This document shows positions 9,034-38,137 of a stretch of DNA of 38,137 nucleotides, piece after piece (positions within the stretch are counted from its first letter, which is position 1; each line of letters starts with the position of its first letter). A program made the translations under genes and the position numbers. The stretch covers positions 1,419 through 39,555 of the forward strand of contig CAZVVX010000005.1 of the NCBI GenBank assembly GCA_964631035.1. Reading direction: 5' to 3'. This DNA is from an uncultured Candidatus Saccharibacteria bacterium (GTDB taxonomy: Bacteria > Patescibacteriota > Minisyncoccia > Phycocordibacterales > PALSA-1337). Under the pieces are notes generated by a model. It ran no database searches. It was given only the letters and a program-made list of their open reading frames with translations, and was not told where the DNA came from.

Positions 9034-9053
9034 TTTATTTTATCAAATCCAAA

Positions 9054-9782
9054 CTAAAGCTTTAACTTAATCGTAAATTTATCTAACTTAACCGCAACCG
9101 CAGTGATTGAAACAGATGCAACGATTAGAATAATAATCTCAACCCCTTTATTAAGATTAATAGAAGGATTTATCAGATTCCATCTAAATAATAATTCCCA
9201 TAAATGTTGCAAACAAAATGCCCATACTAAAACCATCATTGGATTTGCTACTGCCTTACCTATCAAACCAAAATTATTTTTTGCAATCAGTAAATATGAA
9301 CCCAGAAGTCCAGCAACTAAAAAAGCAATAAAATTATGGAATCCATATAATGCTAGAGCAGAACTAGCATATTGAGATATTATTGGGTCAACCCATTTTG
9401 GAATGAAAAATATGAGTATTAGTATTATTGCAACTATCAAACCCCAAATATTCTCTGAGCCAATTTTCATTGAACCATCATCACCATTTGCAAGCTTAAC
9501 CAAAGATCTCAAGCCAAGATAATAAGATATCATTCCGAGATAGAACATTATATGCCACCATATATCTACAGATCCCTGTGAAATATCAAAGAAGCTAGGG
9601 CCTAATTTTTTAAAAAGAGTAATTGCAAAAAATATTGATGTACCAACAAAAATGTACGAGAAAACTGAACCGAGAGCTGATTTGCCGAAATTCCTAACTG
9701 TCATTGACATAATAACTGTTGAGACAAGAAAACAAATAGTTGAGAGATAGTATCCAGACAAAATTAATATTTCAGTATTCAT
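9054..9782 (-). CDS. 7-TM integral membrane protein, unknown function
   Basis: 242 aa with seven hydrophobic segments. Ends 20 nt upstream of the histidine kinase on the same strand. No family motif recognised. Confidence 0.55.
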   Translation of the reverse strand: MNTEILILSGYYLSTICFLVSTVIMSMTVRNFGKSALGSVFSYIFVGTSIFFAITLFKKLGPSFFDISQGSVDIWWHIMFYLGMISYYLGLRSLVKLANGDDGSMKIGSENIWGLIVAIILILIFFIPKWVDPIISQYASSALALYGFHNFIAFLVAGLLGSYLLIAKNNFGLIGKAVANPMMVLVWAFCLQHLWELLFRWNLINPSINLNKGVEIIILIVASVSITAVAVKLDKFTIKLKL

Positions 9783-20781: not shown

Positions 20782-20956
20782 GTTATTAAGATTTAATGAA
20801 GATTGGGGATAAAATTTCATTTATATAAGGAAATTTGATTTAGCTTGCTAATTAGTATTTTTGTGGTAGTATTTTTATCCGGATTCAGTTCTAATTCCCG
20901 TTCGACTCAGCGAATTGGGAATGATACAGTACAAACACTCAGCAACAAGACAAATC

Positions 20957-21652
20957 ATGAGTTTTGAGGATAGACCATTGACGTTGATTGTTGGGCCAAG
21001 GGCATGCGGTAAAAGCACACTTGCAGGTGTGTTAAGATTGATTACCGACAAAGACAGTAGTGTTTTAGTGCATATTGAAACTTCACACCTCATCAGTATG
21101 CACATGGAAAAGGGTACCAATATCGGTATTCAGCTTCTCGCTCATCAACAAAGCATGCAAAACGGTCATGTTATGCAGGTGCATGATGTGATTGTTCAGA
21201 TGATCATGGAATCTGCAATGACCATTTGGCAAGAGCTTGGTACAAAGCAGATTGTGGTCACTGGTACGCCCAGACACCCCGATCAATCAAATAAGATCGT
21301 GGCTACTTTGGGTAAGAACAGGGTGCGTGTCGTCCATATCCAGCAGGACAAGAGTCAGACGACTCGCGGTGTTCTTCATCGACAAAAGGAAACCGGCAAT
21401 ACCCGCACCGATGAAACCGACCATGCAATTGAGGTTGCCTGGCAGGAATACAACGATATGATTCTTCCTGCGGTGAATATCTTCAATGGTGAAGCCCTGC
21501 ATATTCACCGGTTAGATCCGATGAAAAAGAGAGTGGAGCAAGTTCTCCATCATATGAAGATGCCGGACACATGCAGGGCAAAAATCATTAGCAGATTGAA
21601 CACCCGGGATCATCCTGCAGCAAAAAGAATTGCCGAGCTAGATATTAACTAG
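20957..21652 (+). CDS. P-loop NMP kinase-like protein (divergent adenylate-kinase fold)
   Basis: Walker A LIVGPRACGKST about 10 residues from the chosen ATG. VVTGTPR aligns with the DGFPR segment. R..LHRQ....R.DET...IE..W.EY aligns with the short LID/R-x-DD region of adenylate kinases. The ORF track starts at TTG 20915; ATG 20921 is also possible. Confidence 0.6.
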   Translation: MSFEDRPLTLIVGPRACGKSTLAGVLRLITDKDSSVLVHIETSHLISMHMEKGTNIGIQLLAHQQSMQNGHVMQVHDVIVQMIMESAMTIWQELGTKQIVVTGTPRHPDQSNKIVATLGKNRVRVVHIQQDKSQTTRGVLHRQKETGNTRTDETDHAIEVAWQEYNDMILPAVNIFNGEALHIHRLDPMKKRVEQVLHHMKMPDTCRAKIISRLNTRDHPAAKRIAELDIN

Positions 21653-25046: not shown

Positions 25047-25077
25047 CTACCCCCACTTAGTTTTTATATATTCTGAT
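25047..25077 (-). repeat. direct repeat copy B: functional 3' end of the bPH/AlbA_2 gene
   Basis: Encodes S E Y I K T K W G stop. The core starts exactly at the stop codon. Confidence 0.8.
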
Positions 25078-26021
25078 GCCTCACTCATTGAGAATGGTTG
25101 TGTAGAGTTACCAACACGCACGAAAAATTCTTCTTTCTTATCACCATCTTTTAGATATGCTGGCTTATGACTTTCTAATACAGTTATCATACAAATATCT
25201 TTACTATCAACCATTTCAAATTTAATATTTATATATTTTGAAAAGTTCAAACCGATCATGGTTTTGATAAGCATACTAATATGATTTTCAAGTCCATCGC
25301 GATTCTTCTTTGGTAAAGTTTTATAATCACTTTCCAAACCCTTAACCACACCATCATCACTAACCCCGATAATCAGGGTTCCGCCAGAAGTATTGAGGAA
25401 TCCCACTATAGTTTTCATCACCACTCTTTCTAGATCTCTACTAACTTCACCTTTTCTAATATCATTTCTAAGTGTTTCTTTAAATTCTACAAACATTCCT
25501 TCACCTTCTTCAATCAAAACTTTTGGATCTCTTGTTAGAACCTTGCCTGATGAACTGTGAACCATCTGTTTAATAACGTGTACATATTCATCAAAATTAG
25601 AAACATTCTTAATCTTGGTTAGTCTGGAATTATTATGCTCAAGTATTATTGTTGCATGATGCATCATTCTACCGACAGGGCTCTGATATACCTCCACAGA
25701 TGCAACATCATGAATATTCACAGATTTCCTCCTTCGGAAAAATAATCCGGATTTTTTTATTATCTCCTTTTCTGATATTTCAAAATGAGAGAAATACCAA
25801 TCCAAGAACAATATAATCATGTATCCAACTTGAAATATTGAAAAAAATAGAATTTCTAAAATATCATATCTAATATATGAAGTAATAGCTGAACCTCTAA
25901 ATAACAATTCATAATTACCAAGATAAGATATAATCACAAAGAAAATAGATGCAATGATTTCCATCACGACAACATTCCTCAAGAAGACCAGAGGTCCTTC
26001 TTTTATAATCATTTTCCTCAT
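25047..26021 (-). CDS. membrane-anchored bPH_2 (YdbT-like PH) domain fused to an AlbA_2/Schlafen-type DNA-binding domain
   Basis: 324 aa. Two N-terminal TM helices, then KKSGLFFRRRKSVNIHDVASVEVYQSPVGR (bacterial PH motif). The C-terminal EGEGMFVEFKETL...IVGFLNTSGGTLIIGVSDDGVVKGL is typical of AlbA_2. Confidence 0.7.
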   Translation of the reverse strand: MRKMIIKEGPLVFLRNVVVMEIIASIFFVIISYLGNYELLFRGSAITSYIRYDILEILFFSIFQVGYMIILFLDWYFSHFEISEKEIIKKSGLFFRRRKSVNIHDVASVEVYQSPVGRMMHHATIILEHNNSRLTKIKNVSNFDEYVHVIKQMVHSSSGKVLTRDPKVLIEEGEGMFVEFKETLRNDIRKGEVSRDLERVVMKTIVGFLNTSGGTLIIGVSDDGVVKGLESDYKTLPKKNRDGLENHISMLIKTMIGLNFSKYINIKFEMVDSKDICMITVLESHKPAYLKDGDKKEEFFVRVGNSTQPFSMSEASEYIKTKWG

Positions 26022-33034: not shown

Positions 33035-33108
33035 TTACTTAGATTAACACCAAATATACAATCATGGAACTTGCATAATACTATTTTAGTAGTAGCATTA
33101 TACTTTGG

Positions 33109-33234
33109 ATGAGTGCATTATTACTTGGAGGAAGTGTAGCACTCGTTATTATTGCGGGAGGTTTGGTATGGGCATGTGCAATAATAGCGCACCAAAACCC
33201 CCATCCCACCACAGACGAGGAATGTGGTGAATAG
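33109..33234 (+). CDS. candidate 41-aa single-TM peptide
   Basis: Not in the ORF track. ATG...TAG translates as MSALLLGGSVALVIIAGGLVWACAIIAHQNPHPTTDEECGE. A strong terminator starts 5 nt downstream. No obvious SD. Confidence 0.3.
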   Translation: MSALLLGGSVALVIIAGGLVWACAIIAHQNPHPTTDEECGE

Positions 33235-33335: not shown

Positions 33336-33926
33336 TCAAACCATGCGGTAATATAACACCCCCACAATGATAACCAGCCAATACACAATCGTTAATCCAG
33401 GAATTAATCTGGCCTCGAAGGTTGGCTTGTCACCGTAATACGATAGGAAACTGATAAGTGAATAAAGTGTGCAAATTAACAAACTCGTCTGAAATGGATT
33501 ATTGAATGAATCAACAATCTGAGGTACTCCAGCGAGTATAGCTGCCGTTGCACACACAATCACAGCAGGCCCATACTTTTTTCTCCTCTCACACCAAACA
33601 TACATCGCAAGACACATGATGGTTAGTGTTGTGACAAACGCTTCGAAATATCCGAAACTGAGCCTACCGTCCTTATAATACGCACATGCTCCGATCGCAA
33701 AATCGGACAAGATATAGCCAATCATGATTGTATAGCCACCCTGCCCTGCACGGACAAGGACCACTACACACACAACTGACAATAGTGACCACAAAAAGTA
33801 GGAAACAGGATTGAACTTGTCGCCCTGGAAAATCCCCCAGATCACCGGGAGACAAACCAGAACCGCACCAAATCCACCCAGATTCTTGCACAGATTCCTG
33901 AAATCAGCCTTAATTCTCGTCTTCAA
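33336..33926 (-). CDS. 7-TM membrane protein with an apparent 3+1+3 internal repeat (PQ-loop/SWEET/PnuC-like topology)
   Basis: 196 aa with seven hydrophobic helices. CLPVIWGIFQGDKFNP in helix 1 is echoed by GVPQIVDSFNNPF in helix 5. GC-rich codons. Confidence 0.6.
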   Translation of the reverse strand: MKTRIKADFRNLCKNLGGFGAVLVCLPVIWGIFQGDKFNPVSYFLWSLLSVVCVVVLVRAGQGGYTIMIGYILSDFAIGACAYYKDGRLSFGYFEAFVTTLTIMCLAMYVWCERRKKYGPAVIVCATAAILAGVPQIVDSFNNPFQTSLLICTLYSLISFLSYYGDKPTFEARLIPGLTIVYWLVIIVGVLYYRMV

Positions 33927-33981
33927 ATTCGATTCTCCTTCTGGTGAGAAACATTACCTAAAAATTAGCATTCTGTCAATT

Positions 33982-34140
33982 GTGACCCTACAGGGAGTCG
34001 GTCATAGGTCTCGGCTTGCTAGCCTCGCCTACGACCCTGACTCGCTCGCCTTCGCTCGCTCCGTCTTTCGACTCTCGCCTAGCGATCACTAGCGATATAA
34101 AAAAGCATGGCCTAAAGGTATACTTTTTTTAATCGTGTGA
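33982..34140 (+). repeat. 159-bp direct repeat copy 1 (19-nt tRNA-Glu 3'-end core plus 140 bp)
   Basis: Identical to 37018-37176 in my base-by-base comparison. Begins GTGACCCTACAGGGAGTCG. Confidence 0.95.
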
Positions 34141-34310
34141 GCCCATTGTACCTGAAATGGAACACCTTAGAAAATGAGATTATTCGTTGGAATGAGACCT
34201 TCGCTCTTTTTGGTTCCCGATTAAATACTCTAGTTATTGCTTGAATTTAGGAAGAAAGTTACCTAAAGACTTTACCTTACTGGTAATAGAACTAGAGTTG
34301 TATGAGGGGT

Positions 34311-35843
34311 CTAGCGACTTAATTCTTCGATAAATCTTGAGGCTTTTCCTTTCCACATTCGAGACCTAAAGTCGAATTTGAAGTCAGGTTTATTTACTGT
34401 GTTGGCGTGTCGACCTTCAAGGTTAATGCTCGATAAAAGGTGAAGGCTTTTCTTTGCGCGGGTCATTCCAACGTAGAACAATCGCCTCTGGCTCTCAATG
34501 GTGTCGTTACCTTTAGCAACATTCGGAATAACTCCTTCAACAAGACCAATCATAAAAACGTGGTCGGCACCGAGACCCTTCGATTTGTGTATCGACATTA
34601 TGTTCACTCGCTGCTCAACTTCTTCACTTACCAAAACAAAGAGGTTTTCAAGCTTCTCGTCTGCGGTATCTCCCTCTGCCTTTTCATAAAGTTCCGCTAG
34701 TTCGGCGAAGGCAGGTGTTTGCAACGCTTCTTCAATACTTGGATAAGTTACTTTAACTTCTTCGGGAAGCCTGCTTAACAGCAAAGCGTAAAGCTCATCG
34801 ATGTTTTGACCACTATCGTAATGAGACTTTATAAGCGCATAGTACTTACTTCGGGTTTGAAGTACGCGATACCCAAGTAGTAGCAGGTTGAGATATTTGT
34901 GCTTACCAAACAAACTGCATAAACCCCAAGCTTTCACAACCAATTCGACAGGAACTTTTCCGATAAAGTAGTTCTTAAATTCAATCCCCGCCGCTTCCAA
35001 CTTCTTGGTCAGTGGTTCGACAAAAAACCTAACAGGAGAAAGTATTAAGACCTTATCCTCGGCATTTGCAGCAAGAGCCTTCTGTGTCTCGTTAAGTACA
35101 TAGTCTGCGCTATCTTCACTCGTCGAGAACTGTTTGATTTCAAGATTACCTGGCTTGTTGGTTTTCTCCCATTTCTTATCTACACGCTTAACGTTGTTCT
35201 TTATAAGCTTGGTCGCTCCGTCTACAACCACGTCAGGACAGCGATAGCATTTATGTTCGTGAGCTATTGTTTCGTGTGACGGGTCTTGGTGAAGTTCGAT
35301 AATCTTTTCGTTTGACGCGTCTTTGAAGTCGTATATACACTGGTCATCATCACCGAGAATATAAGCCTCCTCCATTACCTCTACGAGTAGGTCTATAAGT
35401 TCCTGCTCTTTCTTATTAAAGTCTTGGTATTCGTCTACTATCAAAATTGAATAGGGTGCAAGCTTTTCCTTGAGATATGCAGGGTTCGCTTTTGCATACC
35501 CAACGAACCTTTCAATCATTTGGTCGAAGGTTGTCGTAGCTAGGAAGTTGCAAAGGTCGACAAAGCTTATTTCTGTTTGGTCAGAAATTTGTTGAAGCTG
35601 CTCGATTTCCTTATTTTCAAGAACGTGACGAGTTTTATCGTGATTGTATTTAACGGCAAACTTATGGAGGGTCATACAGCATTCCACATTTACTCCTGCG
35701 GGAACGAGAGATTTCTTTAAGTCCTCAACCGTGGCGTTGGTGAATGAAATAACCAGAATGCGAGAAGGGTCTGGTTTCTCTGCAATGATTTTCTGTATGT
35801 TAGTTGTTTTGCCCGTACCAGGCCCAGCGAGCAGTACTTTCAT
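34311..35843 (-). CDS. superfamily 1 UvrD/Rep-like DNA helicase, compact (510 aa)
   Basis: Walker A AGPGTGKTT at residues 6-14, motif II LIVDEYQDF, SIHKSKGLGADHVF, motif VI FYVGMTRAKKSL and a C-terminal SRFIEEL. Confidence 0.9.
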   Translation of the reverse strand: MKVLLAGPGTGKTTNIQKIIAEKPDPSRILVISFTNATVEDLKKSLVPAGVNVECCMTLHKFAVKYNHDKTRHVLENKEIEQLQQISDQTEISFVDLCNFLATTTFDQMIERFVGYAKANPAYLKEKLAPYSILIVDEYQDFNKKEQELIDLLVEVMEEAYILGDDDQCIYDFKDASNEKIIELHQDPSHETIAHEHKCYRCPDVVVDGATKLIKNNVKRVDKKWEKTNKPGNLEIKQFSTSEDSADYVLNETQKALAANAEDKVLILSPVRFFVEPLTKKLEAAGIEFKNYFIGKVPVELVVKAWGLCSLFGKHKYLNLLLLGYRVLQTRSKYYALIKSHYDSGQNIDELYALLLSRLPEEVKVTYPSIEEALQTPAFAELAELYEKAEGDTADEKLENLFVLVSEEVEQRVNIMSIHKSKGLGADHVFMIGLVEGVIPNVAKGNDTIESQRRLFYVGMTRAKKSLHLLSSINLEGRHANTVNKPDFKFDFRSRMWKGKASRFIEELSR

Positions 35844-35848
35844 AGTGG

Positions 35849-36829
35849 CTATGCGGACAAGGTCTTTAATTGATTAAGTATTACGTCTTCAATTTCGACC
35901 TCTCCTCCATTCAAAAGAGCTATAATCTTTTCTTCTGTATCGTAGCCAGGTATATGGATACTCTCGCCAGATTTTGTATTGCCACCTTTTACTTTCCTCA
36001 CAAGTTCCGAGGAATTCTTCTTAAACTGTTCTGTGCCAACTAGAAGGTCGGGGCTTAATGCGATAAATACCGTGCCCCAATCACCCTCATCGAATACAAA
36101 TGATGCACCAGTGAGTGCGCCTGCAAGAAGTTCAACAACCATTGCCAATCCTGAACCTTTGTATGAGCGGTCAAATGGAAGTATCGCTCCCTCCATTGCA
36201 GCTTCTGGGTCGATGGTAATGTTGCCTTCTTTATCGATAGCGACATTGTCAGGTAGCTTTTGACCAAGTGCTTTTGCACGAACTAGGCCATACCAAGTAA
36301 TTGCAGAAGCCGCCATATCAAAAACGATTGGATATTCTTCTGTTGGAAACCCAAAAGCAATCGGGTTAGTTCCGTAGGTTGGAGAAATTCCACCAGCAGG
36401 AGCAATAGCTCGTGGCGAGCTTGCTGCAACAATTCCGATTAAGCCTTCTTTAGCTAGCTTTCGTACATAAAAACCAATAGCACCAACACTTGAGAACGTG
36501 TCATTCAAGCCGACTATCGCAAAGCCATTTTCTTTAGCAATTTCAATTGCTTTATCTACAGCAACCTGTGCTGAAAGAGGGCCTGCTGCGCCACCCCCGT
36601 CTATCAATGCAGAGAGCTTGGTCTCTTTTACAACTTTTGCAGGATATTTAGGCTTAATGTTTTGTGCTGGCTCCGAACCTAAAAGCTTGAGAATACCTTG
36701 CGTGTTTTTGCCCGAAACTTCTGCATATAGCAAAACTTCCGTAATTTGTTCAGCTTCTTTTTTGGAGTAATTGTTTGCTGAAATTATATCAACAAGCAAG
36801 GCCTTTAATTCAGCTACTGGGATTTTCAT
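35849..36829 (-). CDS. Ldh_2-family (malate/L-lactate/sulfolactate dehydrogenase type 2) oxidoreductase homologue
   Basis: 326 aa. Family-typical segments EVLLYAEVSG...G, NPIAFGFP, FDMAASAITWYGL..A...G..LP....ID..GN.T.DP and SYKGSGLAMVVELLAGALTG. Stops 5 nt before the helicase ATG. Confidence 0.85.
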   Translation of the reverse strand: MKIPVAELKALLVDIISANNYSKKEAEQITEVLLYAEVSGKNTQGILKLLGSEPAQNIKPKYPAKVVKETKLSALIDGGGAAGPLSAQVAVDKAIEIAKENGFAIVGLNDTFSSVGAIGFYVRKLAKEGLIGIVAASSPRAIAPAGGISPTYGTNPIAFGFPTEEYPIVFDMAASAITWYGLVRAKALGQKLPDNVAIDKEGNITIDPEAAMEGAILPFDRSYKGSGLAMVVELLAGALTGASFVFDEGDWGTVFIALSPDLLVGTEQFKKNSSELVRKVKGGNTKSGESIHIPGYDTEEKIIALLNGGEVEIEDVILNQLKTLSA

Positions 36830-36838
36830 AATAGAAGT

Positions 36839-36867
36839 ATTTTAACACTTTTGGCCTTAATCGTTAA
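36839..36867 (-). promoter_or_regulatory. candidate promoter of the Ldh2-helicase operon (TTAACG-17 nt-TAAAAT)
   Basis: Hexamers on the minus strand at 36867-36862 and 36844-36839. The -10 ends 9 nt before the ATG, so the leader is very short. Confidence 0.3.
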
Positions 36868-37017
36868 GCGAGAAAATGGTAAAATGTAAAGACCTATGGA
36901 GCCGAAAACCTACAATTTCCAAAAGCCAGAGATACGCGCTAAAGCCTCACAGAAGGCTTGTACGGCTCCACTATATTCAAGCTTTCGGAAGAATTTAAGG
37001 GTAATAAAACCCAACTG

Positions 37018-37176
37018 GTGACCCTACAGGGAGTCGGTCATAGGTCTCGGCTTGCTAGCCTCGCCTACGACCCTGACTCGCTCGCCTTCGCTCGCTCCGT
37101 CTTTCGACTCTCGCCTAGCGATCACTAGCGATATAAAAAAGCATGGCCTAAAGGTATACTTTTTTTAATCGTGTGA
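37018..37176 (+). repeat. 159-bp direct repeat copy 2
   Basis: Identical to 33982-34140. Its last 4 nt (GTGA) are also the first 4 nt of the third core, which is part of the intact tRNA-Glu. Confidence 0.95.
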
Positions 37177-37245
37177 CCCTACAGGGAGTCGAACCCTGGT
37201 TAACGGATTGAAAACCCGTTGTCCTAACCGTTAGACGATAGGGCC
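37174..37245 (-). tRNA. tRNA-Glu (anticodon UUC), no encoded CCA
   Basis: Hand fold: acceptor GGCCCTA/TAGGGTC, D stem GTCT/GGAC, anticodon arm ACGGG-TTTTCAA-TCCGT, variable loop TAAC, T arm CAGGG-TTCGACT-CCCTG, discriminator A. Confidence 0.93.
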
Positions 37246-37306: not shown

Positions 37307-37393
37307 GGAAAGGTGGGTGAGTGGTTGAAATCACCGCTCTCGAAAAGCGGCAGGCCAGAAATGGTCTCGAGGGTTCAAATCCCTCCCTTTCCG
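37307..37393 (+). tRNA. tRNA-Ser (anticodon CGA) with a long variable arm
   Basis: Acceptor GGAAAGG/CCTTTCC, anticodon arm CCGCT-CTCGAAA-AGCGG, long variable arm, T arm GAGGG-TTCAAAT-CCCTC, discriminator G. Confidence 0.93.
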
Positions 37394-37425
37394 CTAATAT
37401 GCTATAATTTAATGCAAAATAAACC

Positions 37426-38085: not shown

Positions 38086-38137
38086 GCGCGATTAGCTCAG
38101 TTGGTAGAGCATGGGATTGACGTTCTCAGGGTCGCAG
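38086..38137 (+). tRNA. tRNA-Val (anticodon GAC), truncated by the window end
   Basis: GCGCGAT-TA-GCTC-AGTTGGTA-GAGC-A-TGGGA-TTGACGT-TCTCA... matches the acceptor, D arm and anticodon arm. The T arm is cut off. Confidence 0.85.

Follow-up and report, generated by a model that had tools for sequence, protein, structure and literature searches.

We analysed a 38,137-nt stretch of DNA (the window) from an uncultured Candidatus Saccharibacteria bacterium (GenBank assembly GCA_964631035.1, contig CAZVVX010000005.1, positions 1,419 to 39,555). Close to its right end lies an intact tRNA-Glu(UUC) gene (37173-37245, minus strand), called both by ARAGORN and by Infernal with the Rfam tRNA model (62.7 bits). 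A cassette of about 3 kb adjoins its 3′ end. An original prediction, made from the DNA letters alone, had placed the tRNA here and seen three same-orientation copies of its 3′ end. These copies are exact: the 19-mer GTGACCCTACAGGGAGTCG occurs at 33982, 37018 and 37173, all on the plus strand, and nowhere else in the window, while none would be expected by chance even with three mismatches permitted. The last 19 nt of the tRNA gene itself (37173-37191) are called core 0. Core 1 (37018-37036, minus strand) is a copy of the T-loop, the 3′ strand of the T-stem and the 3′ end of the acceptor. Core 2 (33982-34000, minus strand) is a displaced tRNA-Glu 3′ end that forms an attR-type junction with chromosomal DNA. 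Duplicated tRNA 3′ ends of this kind are integration footprints.

Cores 1 and 2 each begin one copy of a direct repeat, R. Positions 33982-34143 match 37018-37179 over 162 nt with a single mismatch near the end; the perfect 159-bp identity noted earlier lies inside it. The copies are spaced 3036 nt apart and bracket a unit of 3,036 bp, and homology stops at both ends of the repeat. Read in the direction of the tRNA, the array runs tRNA, core 0, X, core 1, the fossil of a recombinase gene, Ldh2, helicase, X, core 2 and chromosome, X being the non-tRNA part of the repeat. It is thus a tandem of a miniature unit, made of X only, and a full unit made of Y (the part with the Ldh2 and helicase genes) and X, as the original prediction had laid it out. 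The cassette is also GC-rich as proposed, at 0.42 against 0.32 in the remaining window, and the GC-rich part of X reaches 0.58. Junction 2, between X-core 2 and the chromosome, is an attR; junction 1, between X-core 1 and the recombinase gene end, has the form expected either of the attP of an excised circle or of an inner tandem junction.

Domain searches of all window open reading frames (ORFs) of at least 100 aa returned no integrase, transposase or Rep domain, which agrees with what had been read from the letters. Neither a recombinase nor transfer genes were found in the window, and cores 0, 1 and 2 are identical. The locus carries the signature used by Islander, an intact tRNA with displaced 3′ fragments of the same tRNA in direct orientation, and it has no onboard integrase gene.

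A serine recombinase family that ends inside tRNA genes

The DNA fused to core 1 identifies the missing enzyme. Positions 36970-37017 (plus strand) hold the final 16 codons (TIFKLSEEFKGNKTQL) of a gene for a large serine recombinase (LSR). This fossil abuts core 1 directly and in the same frame, with core 1 translating as VTLQGV. We built a position-specific scoring matrix from the 16 family columns that precede the part encoded by the tRNA. It gives the fossil 25.7 bits, and the runner-up among 30,957 six-frame positions reaches 4.1. The same segment is the top match in the window of a hidden Markov model of the full-length family, and tblastn finds it at E about 1e-6. By blastn, the gene ends of two intact relatives, on loci L031 and L032, align to 36979-37036 with 79% identity (E 2e-6). 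A weaker colinear trace of the gene may extend to 36870.

The intact relatives explain the frame. One contig, L014, opens in a tRNA-Glu gene, of which it holds the last 30 nt; directly after them, on the opposite strand, a 558-aa protein with Resolvase and Recombinase domains is encoded. The ORF (L014:3-1676) reads through the tRNA end and off the contig, and a helicase gene comes next. This protein has 355 matches at E below 1e-30. C-terminal tails in the family read ...KLSEEFKTNKSLS followed by VTLRGIEPRF, where the residues from VT onwards come from translating a tRNA 3′ end in antisense. Such tRNA-antisense tails occur in about 90 of the best 120 homologues; 21 of the best 120 have a conserved non-tRNA tail instead (..WNTIENxVxKWNxVF..). 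In L031 (2686-4371) and L032 (10001-11686), the genes, for proteins of about 560 aa, have their stop codon 39 nt inside tRNA-Glu(UUC), whose 3′ end is identical to the window core in L031 and differs by one base in L032. The L032 gene sits at the syntenic TsaD-PrsW-HSP20-LepA locus, together with a Prim-Pol primase and defence-like genes. A gene with the Resolvase catalytic and Recombinase/zinc-ribbon domains is thus present in L014, L031 and L032 and absent from the window.

Since the reading frame ends inside the target tRNA, integration would rewrite the C-terminus of the recombinase. The fusion of a recombinase C-terminus to core 1 shows that the cassette is a decayed, recombinase-less member of this family of elements with an LSR of about 560 aa, and not the tyrosine-recombinase element that the original prediction took it for.

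The cargo of the cassette is intact. An Ldh_2 family dehydrogenase of 326 aa (35849-36829, minus strand) matches Pfam PF02615 over its full length at 2.9e-77, with NCBIfam matches below cut-offs. Beside it lies a UvrD-like superfamily 1 helicase of 510 aa (34311-35843, minus strand), recognized by Pfam and, as GajB-like, by PADLOC (3e-42). Pfam thereby bears out both gene assignments made for Y beforehand. A non-coding spacer (34144-34310) separates the helicase stop codon from the distal X; what it has in common with the tRNA is limited to 4-7 nt. The closest homologue of the helicase, at 79% identity, is the one beside the LSR at the tRNA-Glu end of L014, and a further homologue, at 69%, stands beside LSR genes in L019-L022. 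This helicase family recurs next to large serine recombinases and is typical of such elements. Searched singly, neither the helicase nor the LSR had relatives among viral contigs, and the whole unit had no blastn match among plasmids and phages.

The helicase resembles Gabija in its score against GajB profiles and differs from that system in its lack of GajA, the OLD-family ATPase/TOPRIM partner, and in its varying partner genes. We rejected membership of Gabija: the only gene beside the helicase is Ldh2, which has no PADLOC match. The partner of the helicase is Ldh2 in the window and an Ea47-like protein in L014 and L018. On JGI contigs, GajB-like helicases are accompanied by type III Mod/Res or restriction-endonuclease-like genes. 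Besides the window, the helicase loci compared were L014, L018 and L023-L029. A GajB-like helicase with a changing partner may form a modular defence pair.

Outside the cassette, the window codes for a bPH_2 plus SLFN/AlbA_2 protein (25047-26021) and for an adenylate-kinase or zeta-toxin-like protein (20915-21652), the latter in a GC-rich stretch (0.43 at 21-22 kb). Both may likewise serve in defence or as toxins, with no connection to the cassette. On the other side of tRNA-Glu lies a tRNA-Ser(CGA) gene (37307-37394, plus strand), and the 5′ part of another tRNA is cut by the window end (38086-38137); in the longer contig, it is a tRNA-Val(GAC).

Polymorphism at the tRNA-Glu locus

We collected relatives of the locus by searching with TsaD against one genome per species, which matched only metagenome-assembled genomes (MAGs) of Candidatus Saccharibacteria. 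They supply the empty-site variants that the original prediction had called for. L002 is 99.86% identical to the window over 11 kb on the tRNA side, and has the order Z′-core-X-tRNA-Glu without Y, Z being the gene next to the array. In L013 (TsaD 93%), the order is Z″-kinase-Fic-core-X-tRNA-Glu, again without Y. L016 reads Z-kinase-Fic-tRNA-Glu, with neither X nor a second core, and L012 (TsaD 71%) also lacks X. The DNA that follows the tRNA in L016 is homologous, from its first base, to the DNA that follows core 1 in L013. X plus core is therefore a clean insertion of about 150 bp that duplicates the last 19-20 nt of the tRNA.

Z (33336-33926, minus strand), a multi-pass membrane protein of 196 aa, had been taken for a unit of the cassette. 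Its orthologues stand beside an SNase gene in all the relatives looked at (L002, L013, L016 and L017), so that Z is a conserved chromosomal neighbour outside the mobile array. In the window it is a divergent allele: its protein shares 70% identity with Z of L002 and L013 and 97% with Z of CAZOGG, a MAG less closely related, and its DNA is 76% identical between the window and L002. Because the allele is closer to that of the distant MAG, the segment from Z to X was probably swapped in by homologous recombination. A 41-aa hydrophobic ORF (33105-33234) lies between the SNase gene and Z, within a stretch of about 100 nt that is missing from L013; L002 has an unrelated AT-rich ORF on the corresponding side.

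Between tRNA-Glu and Z, relatives carry a Fic/DOC protein and an AAA_33 or zeta-toxin-like kinase (L013:7388-8481, L016:5589-7532, L017:1-143). The window and L002 have both lost this pair, through deletions that differ in their inner end points and both stop exactly at the core. In L017 and L013, Z is preceded by the kinase gene, and it is to the 3′ end of that gene that the window flank at 33954-33981 is homologous. The contigs of CAZOGG break exactly at the tRNA-Glu 3′ end (L010:1-76) and inside the kinase gene before Z (L017:1-170); the tRNA-Glu hot spot is unresolved or heterogeneous in that MAG as well.

A structured module next to the core

X, first described as the 140-bp non-tRNA part of the repeat, is no anonymous spacer but a structured module that is conserved, and another tRNA has a version of it too. 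The distal X (34001-34143, minus strand, structured module at 33994-34075) is identical to the proximal one in the repeat alignment. The proximal module (37030-37111, minus strand) comprises three helices, P1, P2 and P3, the 3′ strand of P1 being the first nucleotides of core 1; it is supported by two covariance models, R1 and R2 (138 and 101 bits), pair counts and RNAalifold. The tRNA-proximal 40 nt of the proximal X (37133-37172, minus strand) consist of an A-run, a hairpin and a T-run, as in a terminator (variant A, from alignments and folding). L002 and L013 have an unrelated hairpin, variant B, at this site: the terminator-like hairpin is exchanged wholesale between strains. X as such is well kept, with 97% identity between the window and L013, compared with 82-85% in adjoining genes.

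X plus core also stands alone beside tRNA-Glu in relatives. A search for further copies had been suggested. A profile of the peptide encoded by X revealed a diverged version, X_Ser (9051-9127), in L013, beside tRNA-Ser(CGA). The order there (L013:9040-9145) is tRNA-Ser, 12 nt, X_Ser and an 18-nt copy of the tRNA-Ser 3′ end; in the window, the gap between tRNA-Ser and lysE is just 31 nt (37395-37425). In addition, the ORF running through the fossil, core 1 and X was used as a phmmer query and gave peptide traces of X in four other organisms, each between two copies of a tRNA end, with three types of core and, in one case, two tandem X-core units. One of these traces is the protein P0314, in which an intact LSR reads into a core, which is followed by an X-like segment, a core and the tRNA; the layout therefore recurs. 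Most matches of a 56-aa ORF in a representative search were WD40-like repeat proteins and were dropped as spurious.

On the tRNA-sense strand, X_Glu and X_Ser have three helices in common. In P1, the 5′ end of X is base-paired with that part of the tRNA-derived core that comes from the T-loop: GAGUC:GACUC at tRNA-Glu and GGAUUU:AAAUCC at tRNA-Ser. This helix therefore varies according to the target. The other two, P2 and P3, are hairpins whose loops, GAAG and AGCA, are conserved. One G·U pair is conserved, and X_Glu has tandem G·A pairs where X_Ser has standard ones. Altogether, we counted 31 pairs, 12 of them compensatory. Of the cells, 89% were paired, a share that fell to 25-35% once partners were slid; none of 500 shuffles reached the observed value. 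RNAalifold independently gave the same helices with 26 pairs, 12 compensatory and 0 broken. Both X versions fold better on the tRNA-sense strand than on the antisense one, and the conserved G·U pair as well as a change from G-C to G-U in L013 are compatible with the sense strand only.

From this covariation, X is predicted to be a conserved three-helix junction on the tRNA-sense strand, whose closing helix covaries with the target tRNA. It would most likely be a transcribed RNA element belonging to the att arm, although a folded single-stranded DNA could give the same pattern. Rfam holds no match for it at E up to 10 (271-nt query), and a tRNA, a tmRNA or a known ribozyme was ruled out by ARAGORN and Rfam. 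Nor is there support for reading X as coding sequence that would extend the LSR gene at its 3′ end in a circle: the frame is open, which we estimate to be unremarkable at such GC, and the peptide is unlike the WNTIEN tail of the homologues with a non-tRNA tail. A degenerate fourth core or tRNA remnant at the junction of Y with the distal X was likewise discarded, as only TCAC is shared (6/7 nt) and the alignment scores no better than shuffles. Lastly, an integron-like cassette array has neither IntI nor more than two units in its favour here.

Origin of the tandem and its relation to known systems

We propose that the tRNA-Glu(UUC) gene is the attachment site of integrative elements whose LSR gene, of about 560 codons, runs antisense into the tRNA 3′ end, that the cassette is a decayed member of this family and that X is its att arm; taken together, these three statements are probably right. 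X would lie against the displaced tRNA 3′ end in the integrated element (attR) and against the core in the excised one (attP). The locus would then hold two tandem att-flanked units without a recombinase, X alone and, next to it, the LSR fossil, Ldh2, helicase and X. Such a tandem could have grown by accretion at a resident X-core, through an LSR supplied in trans or through RecA acting across the 162 bp of homology. Any present mobility of the cassette would likewise depend on an LSR in trans or on recombination between its perfect repeats.

Several routes may have led to the observed order. The proximal unit may have lost its interior after two successive integrations, a deletion for which the junction sequences GGGTCAC/ACGATT (at the tRNA) and GGCTCAC/ACGATT (at the spacer end) offer microhomology. 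Alternatively, a circle of Y, X and core may have integrated at a resident X-core, the agent being either a trans-acting recombinase or RecA working over the 162 bp. It may also be that no integration exists in most cells.

A number of results weigh against the proposal. No complete element of the LSR family with both its ends was recovered, and no second core lies within 10-13 kb at the far end of L014 and L032, where intact elements should end in X; X as the distal arm of intact elements is something that we infer. The homologues with a non-tRNA tail read WNTIEN..., unlike the peptide encoded by X. Canonical serine integrases recombine attP with attB only, a 2-bp overlap being sufficient, so that 19-bp repeats and integration at an X-core site are atypical for them. 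Exact 25-mers of X gave 0 matches in viral and genome contigs, although the word used in the genome scan mismatches even the X of L013; a 23-mer, the 19-nt core and a degenerate codon pattern all gave 0 matches in viral contigs. The two matches of a 20-mer in metagenome contigs are due to chance, lying in high-GC coding DNA. When the covariance models R1 and R2 were run over the loci fetched, about 270 kb in total and 90 kb of it searched unfiltered, they recovered their training copies only. The fold derives from two diverged X versions taken as DNA, and from the very sequences in which the pairs were counted. Finally, the integrated state is based on a single scaffold, and R, at 162 nt, is longer than the largest k-mer (141).

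This last point opens the way to an explanation in which the scaffold threads a loop. The chromosome would read tRNA-Glu-X-core-Z, as it does in L002, and the 3,036 bp of Y, X and core would be a free circle, either an excised element or a mini-plasmid, that shares R and was walked once by the assembler. As R exceeds every k-mer used, short-read assembly cannot separate an integrated cassette from such a circle, the graph being identical for both states. A MEGAHIT assembly (k=141) of a related sample indeed gives the unit as a contig, L005, of 3,177 nt (3036+141) whose two ends share the same 141 nt; the Z-side contig (L006) ends inside R, and the tRNA-side Logan contig (L003) begins inside R. 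The junction of X-core 1 with the LSR fossil also looks as the attP of an excised circle should. A loop-shaped contig is equally expected from a repeat-flanked insertion, however, and one scaffold of 98.9 kb, to which the window belongs (ENA ERZ28655916, scaffold_59), traverses R-Y-R. Moreover, a circle without a Rep or initiator gene would need constant excision, yet the window has no recombinase. We regard the free circle as unlikely. Somewhat better placed, though still short of an even chance, is the idea that homologous recombination brought in the segment from Z to X, R-Y-R included, from a diverged Saccharibacterium, with R-Y-R itself arising from RecA integration of a circle through homology in X. 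It fits the 99.86% identity of the window and L002 to the right of X next to Z alleles only 76% identical in DNA, the 97% protein identity of Z to a more distant MAG, the wholesale exchange of the terminator part of X between the window strain and L002 and the identity of the repeats over all 162 nt, beyond the core alone. An import of this kind explains the arrival of the allele and the duplication of R, but not the existence of the cores, the LSR fossil and X, and would thus supplement decay from a serine-recombinase element rather than replace it.

The classical explanation, in which a tyrosine integrase now lost or encoded elsewhere made the three cores, has become very improbable. Repeats of about 19 bp of a tRNA 3′ end from the T-loop are the textbook signature of a tyrosine-integrase island (Islander, PMC4383910), and tandem integration at attR is easy for such enzymes (PMC5704250). 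Against this stand the fossil of a serine recombinase C-terminus fused to core 1, the three intact relatives with an LSR overlapping the same tRNA-Glu end and the absence of a Phage_integrase domain from the window.

Among described systems, the Dehalococcoides ssrA genomic islands are the closest. These have a serine recombinase of about 540 aa on the reverse strand beside attL and 20-bp repeats of the ssrA 3′ end from the T-loop (McMurdie et al. 2011, PMC3146451). Ahead of every repeat stands a conserved motif. The islands occur in tandem arrays, and those without an integration module, of which there are many, were read by the authors as cis-mobilizable (PMC3146451). Common to both systems are the reverse-strand LSR by attL, the T-loop-anchored repeats of about 20 bp, tandem islands of which some lack the integration module and a conserved element-derived motif directly upstream of each repeat. 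The ssrA islands differ in their target, a tmRNA instead of a tRNA, and in the host phylum; neither an overlap of the recombinase ORF with the target nor a structured arm of about 80 nt is described there, and the two recombinases are set side by side by description.

The cassette also resembles the cis-mobilizable elements (CIMEs) known at tRNA genes, for which a scheme of tandem decay and accretion has been laid out (PMC5704250; Pavlovic 2004 and Bellanger 2011, reviewed in PMC5704250). Both are att-flanked units in tandem at a tRNA 3′ end without integration and transfer genes, and in both the expected path is integration, decay and further integration at the resident att site. In the window, the att sites are kept and those genes lost, and descent from an autonomous element is visible in the LSR fossil and the shared helicase. 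Described CIMEs come from integrative conjugative or mobilizable elements (ICEs or IMEs) with a tyrosine integrase, whereas the parent here carried a serine recombinase, one unit is only about 150 bp long and cis-mobilization is putative. The tDNA islands of Islander and TIGER (PMC4383910) share the intact tRNA, the direct-orientation 3′ fragments at island ends and the T-loop type of attachment, and differ in that the integrase family here is serine.

Other serine recombinases offer weaker parallels. The IMEs with a serine integrase found in the literature disrupt protein genes and have 2-bp identity between their att sites. The 19-nt repeats of the window do not follow the rule of large serine integrases, a 2-bp crossover and no long repeats, and fit the style of the ssrA islands and SCC rather than that of phiC31. 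SCCmec, with its CcrAB enzymes, targets the protein gene rlmH, needs two recombinases and has no structured arm, in all of which it departs from the elements described here. It is like them in its large serine recombinase, its repeats of about 15-20 bp at the 3′ end of an essential gene and its composite tandems (partly as cited in PMC3146451).

Tandem island remnants at tRNA genes are ordinary, and the cassette is a recombinase-less remnant in a strain-polymorphic tRNA hot spot. What is unusual is the large family of tRNA-targeting serine recombinases with an ORF that overlaps its own attachment site, and the conserved structured arm, without a match in Rfam, whose closing helix follows the target tRNA. 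Our literature search found no description of such a family in Saccharibacteria, a lineage of ultra-small episymbionts, and little on mobile elements there.

To our knowledge, integration by serine recombinases is thought to be purely protein-guided. It is conceivable, although we consider it rather doubtful, that X-core is a functional structured RNA or folded strand of these elements, with a 5′ arm complementary to the T-loop of the target. It would then act in att-site function or in the choice of target, or let X-core units of about 150 bp persist and spread as minimal att-flanked elements. If this were true, the integration of serine-recombinase elements would have a component of nucleic-acid structure. 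A functional fold would bring in a compact group of serine integrases that are specific for tRNAs and have defined att sites, and it would provide a handle on how such recombinases choose their target tRNA.

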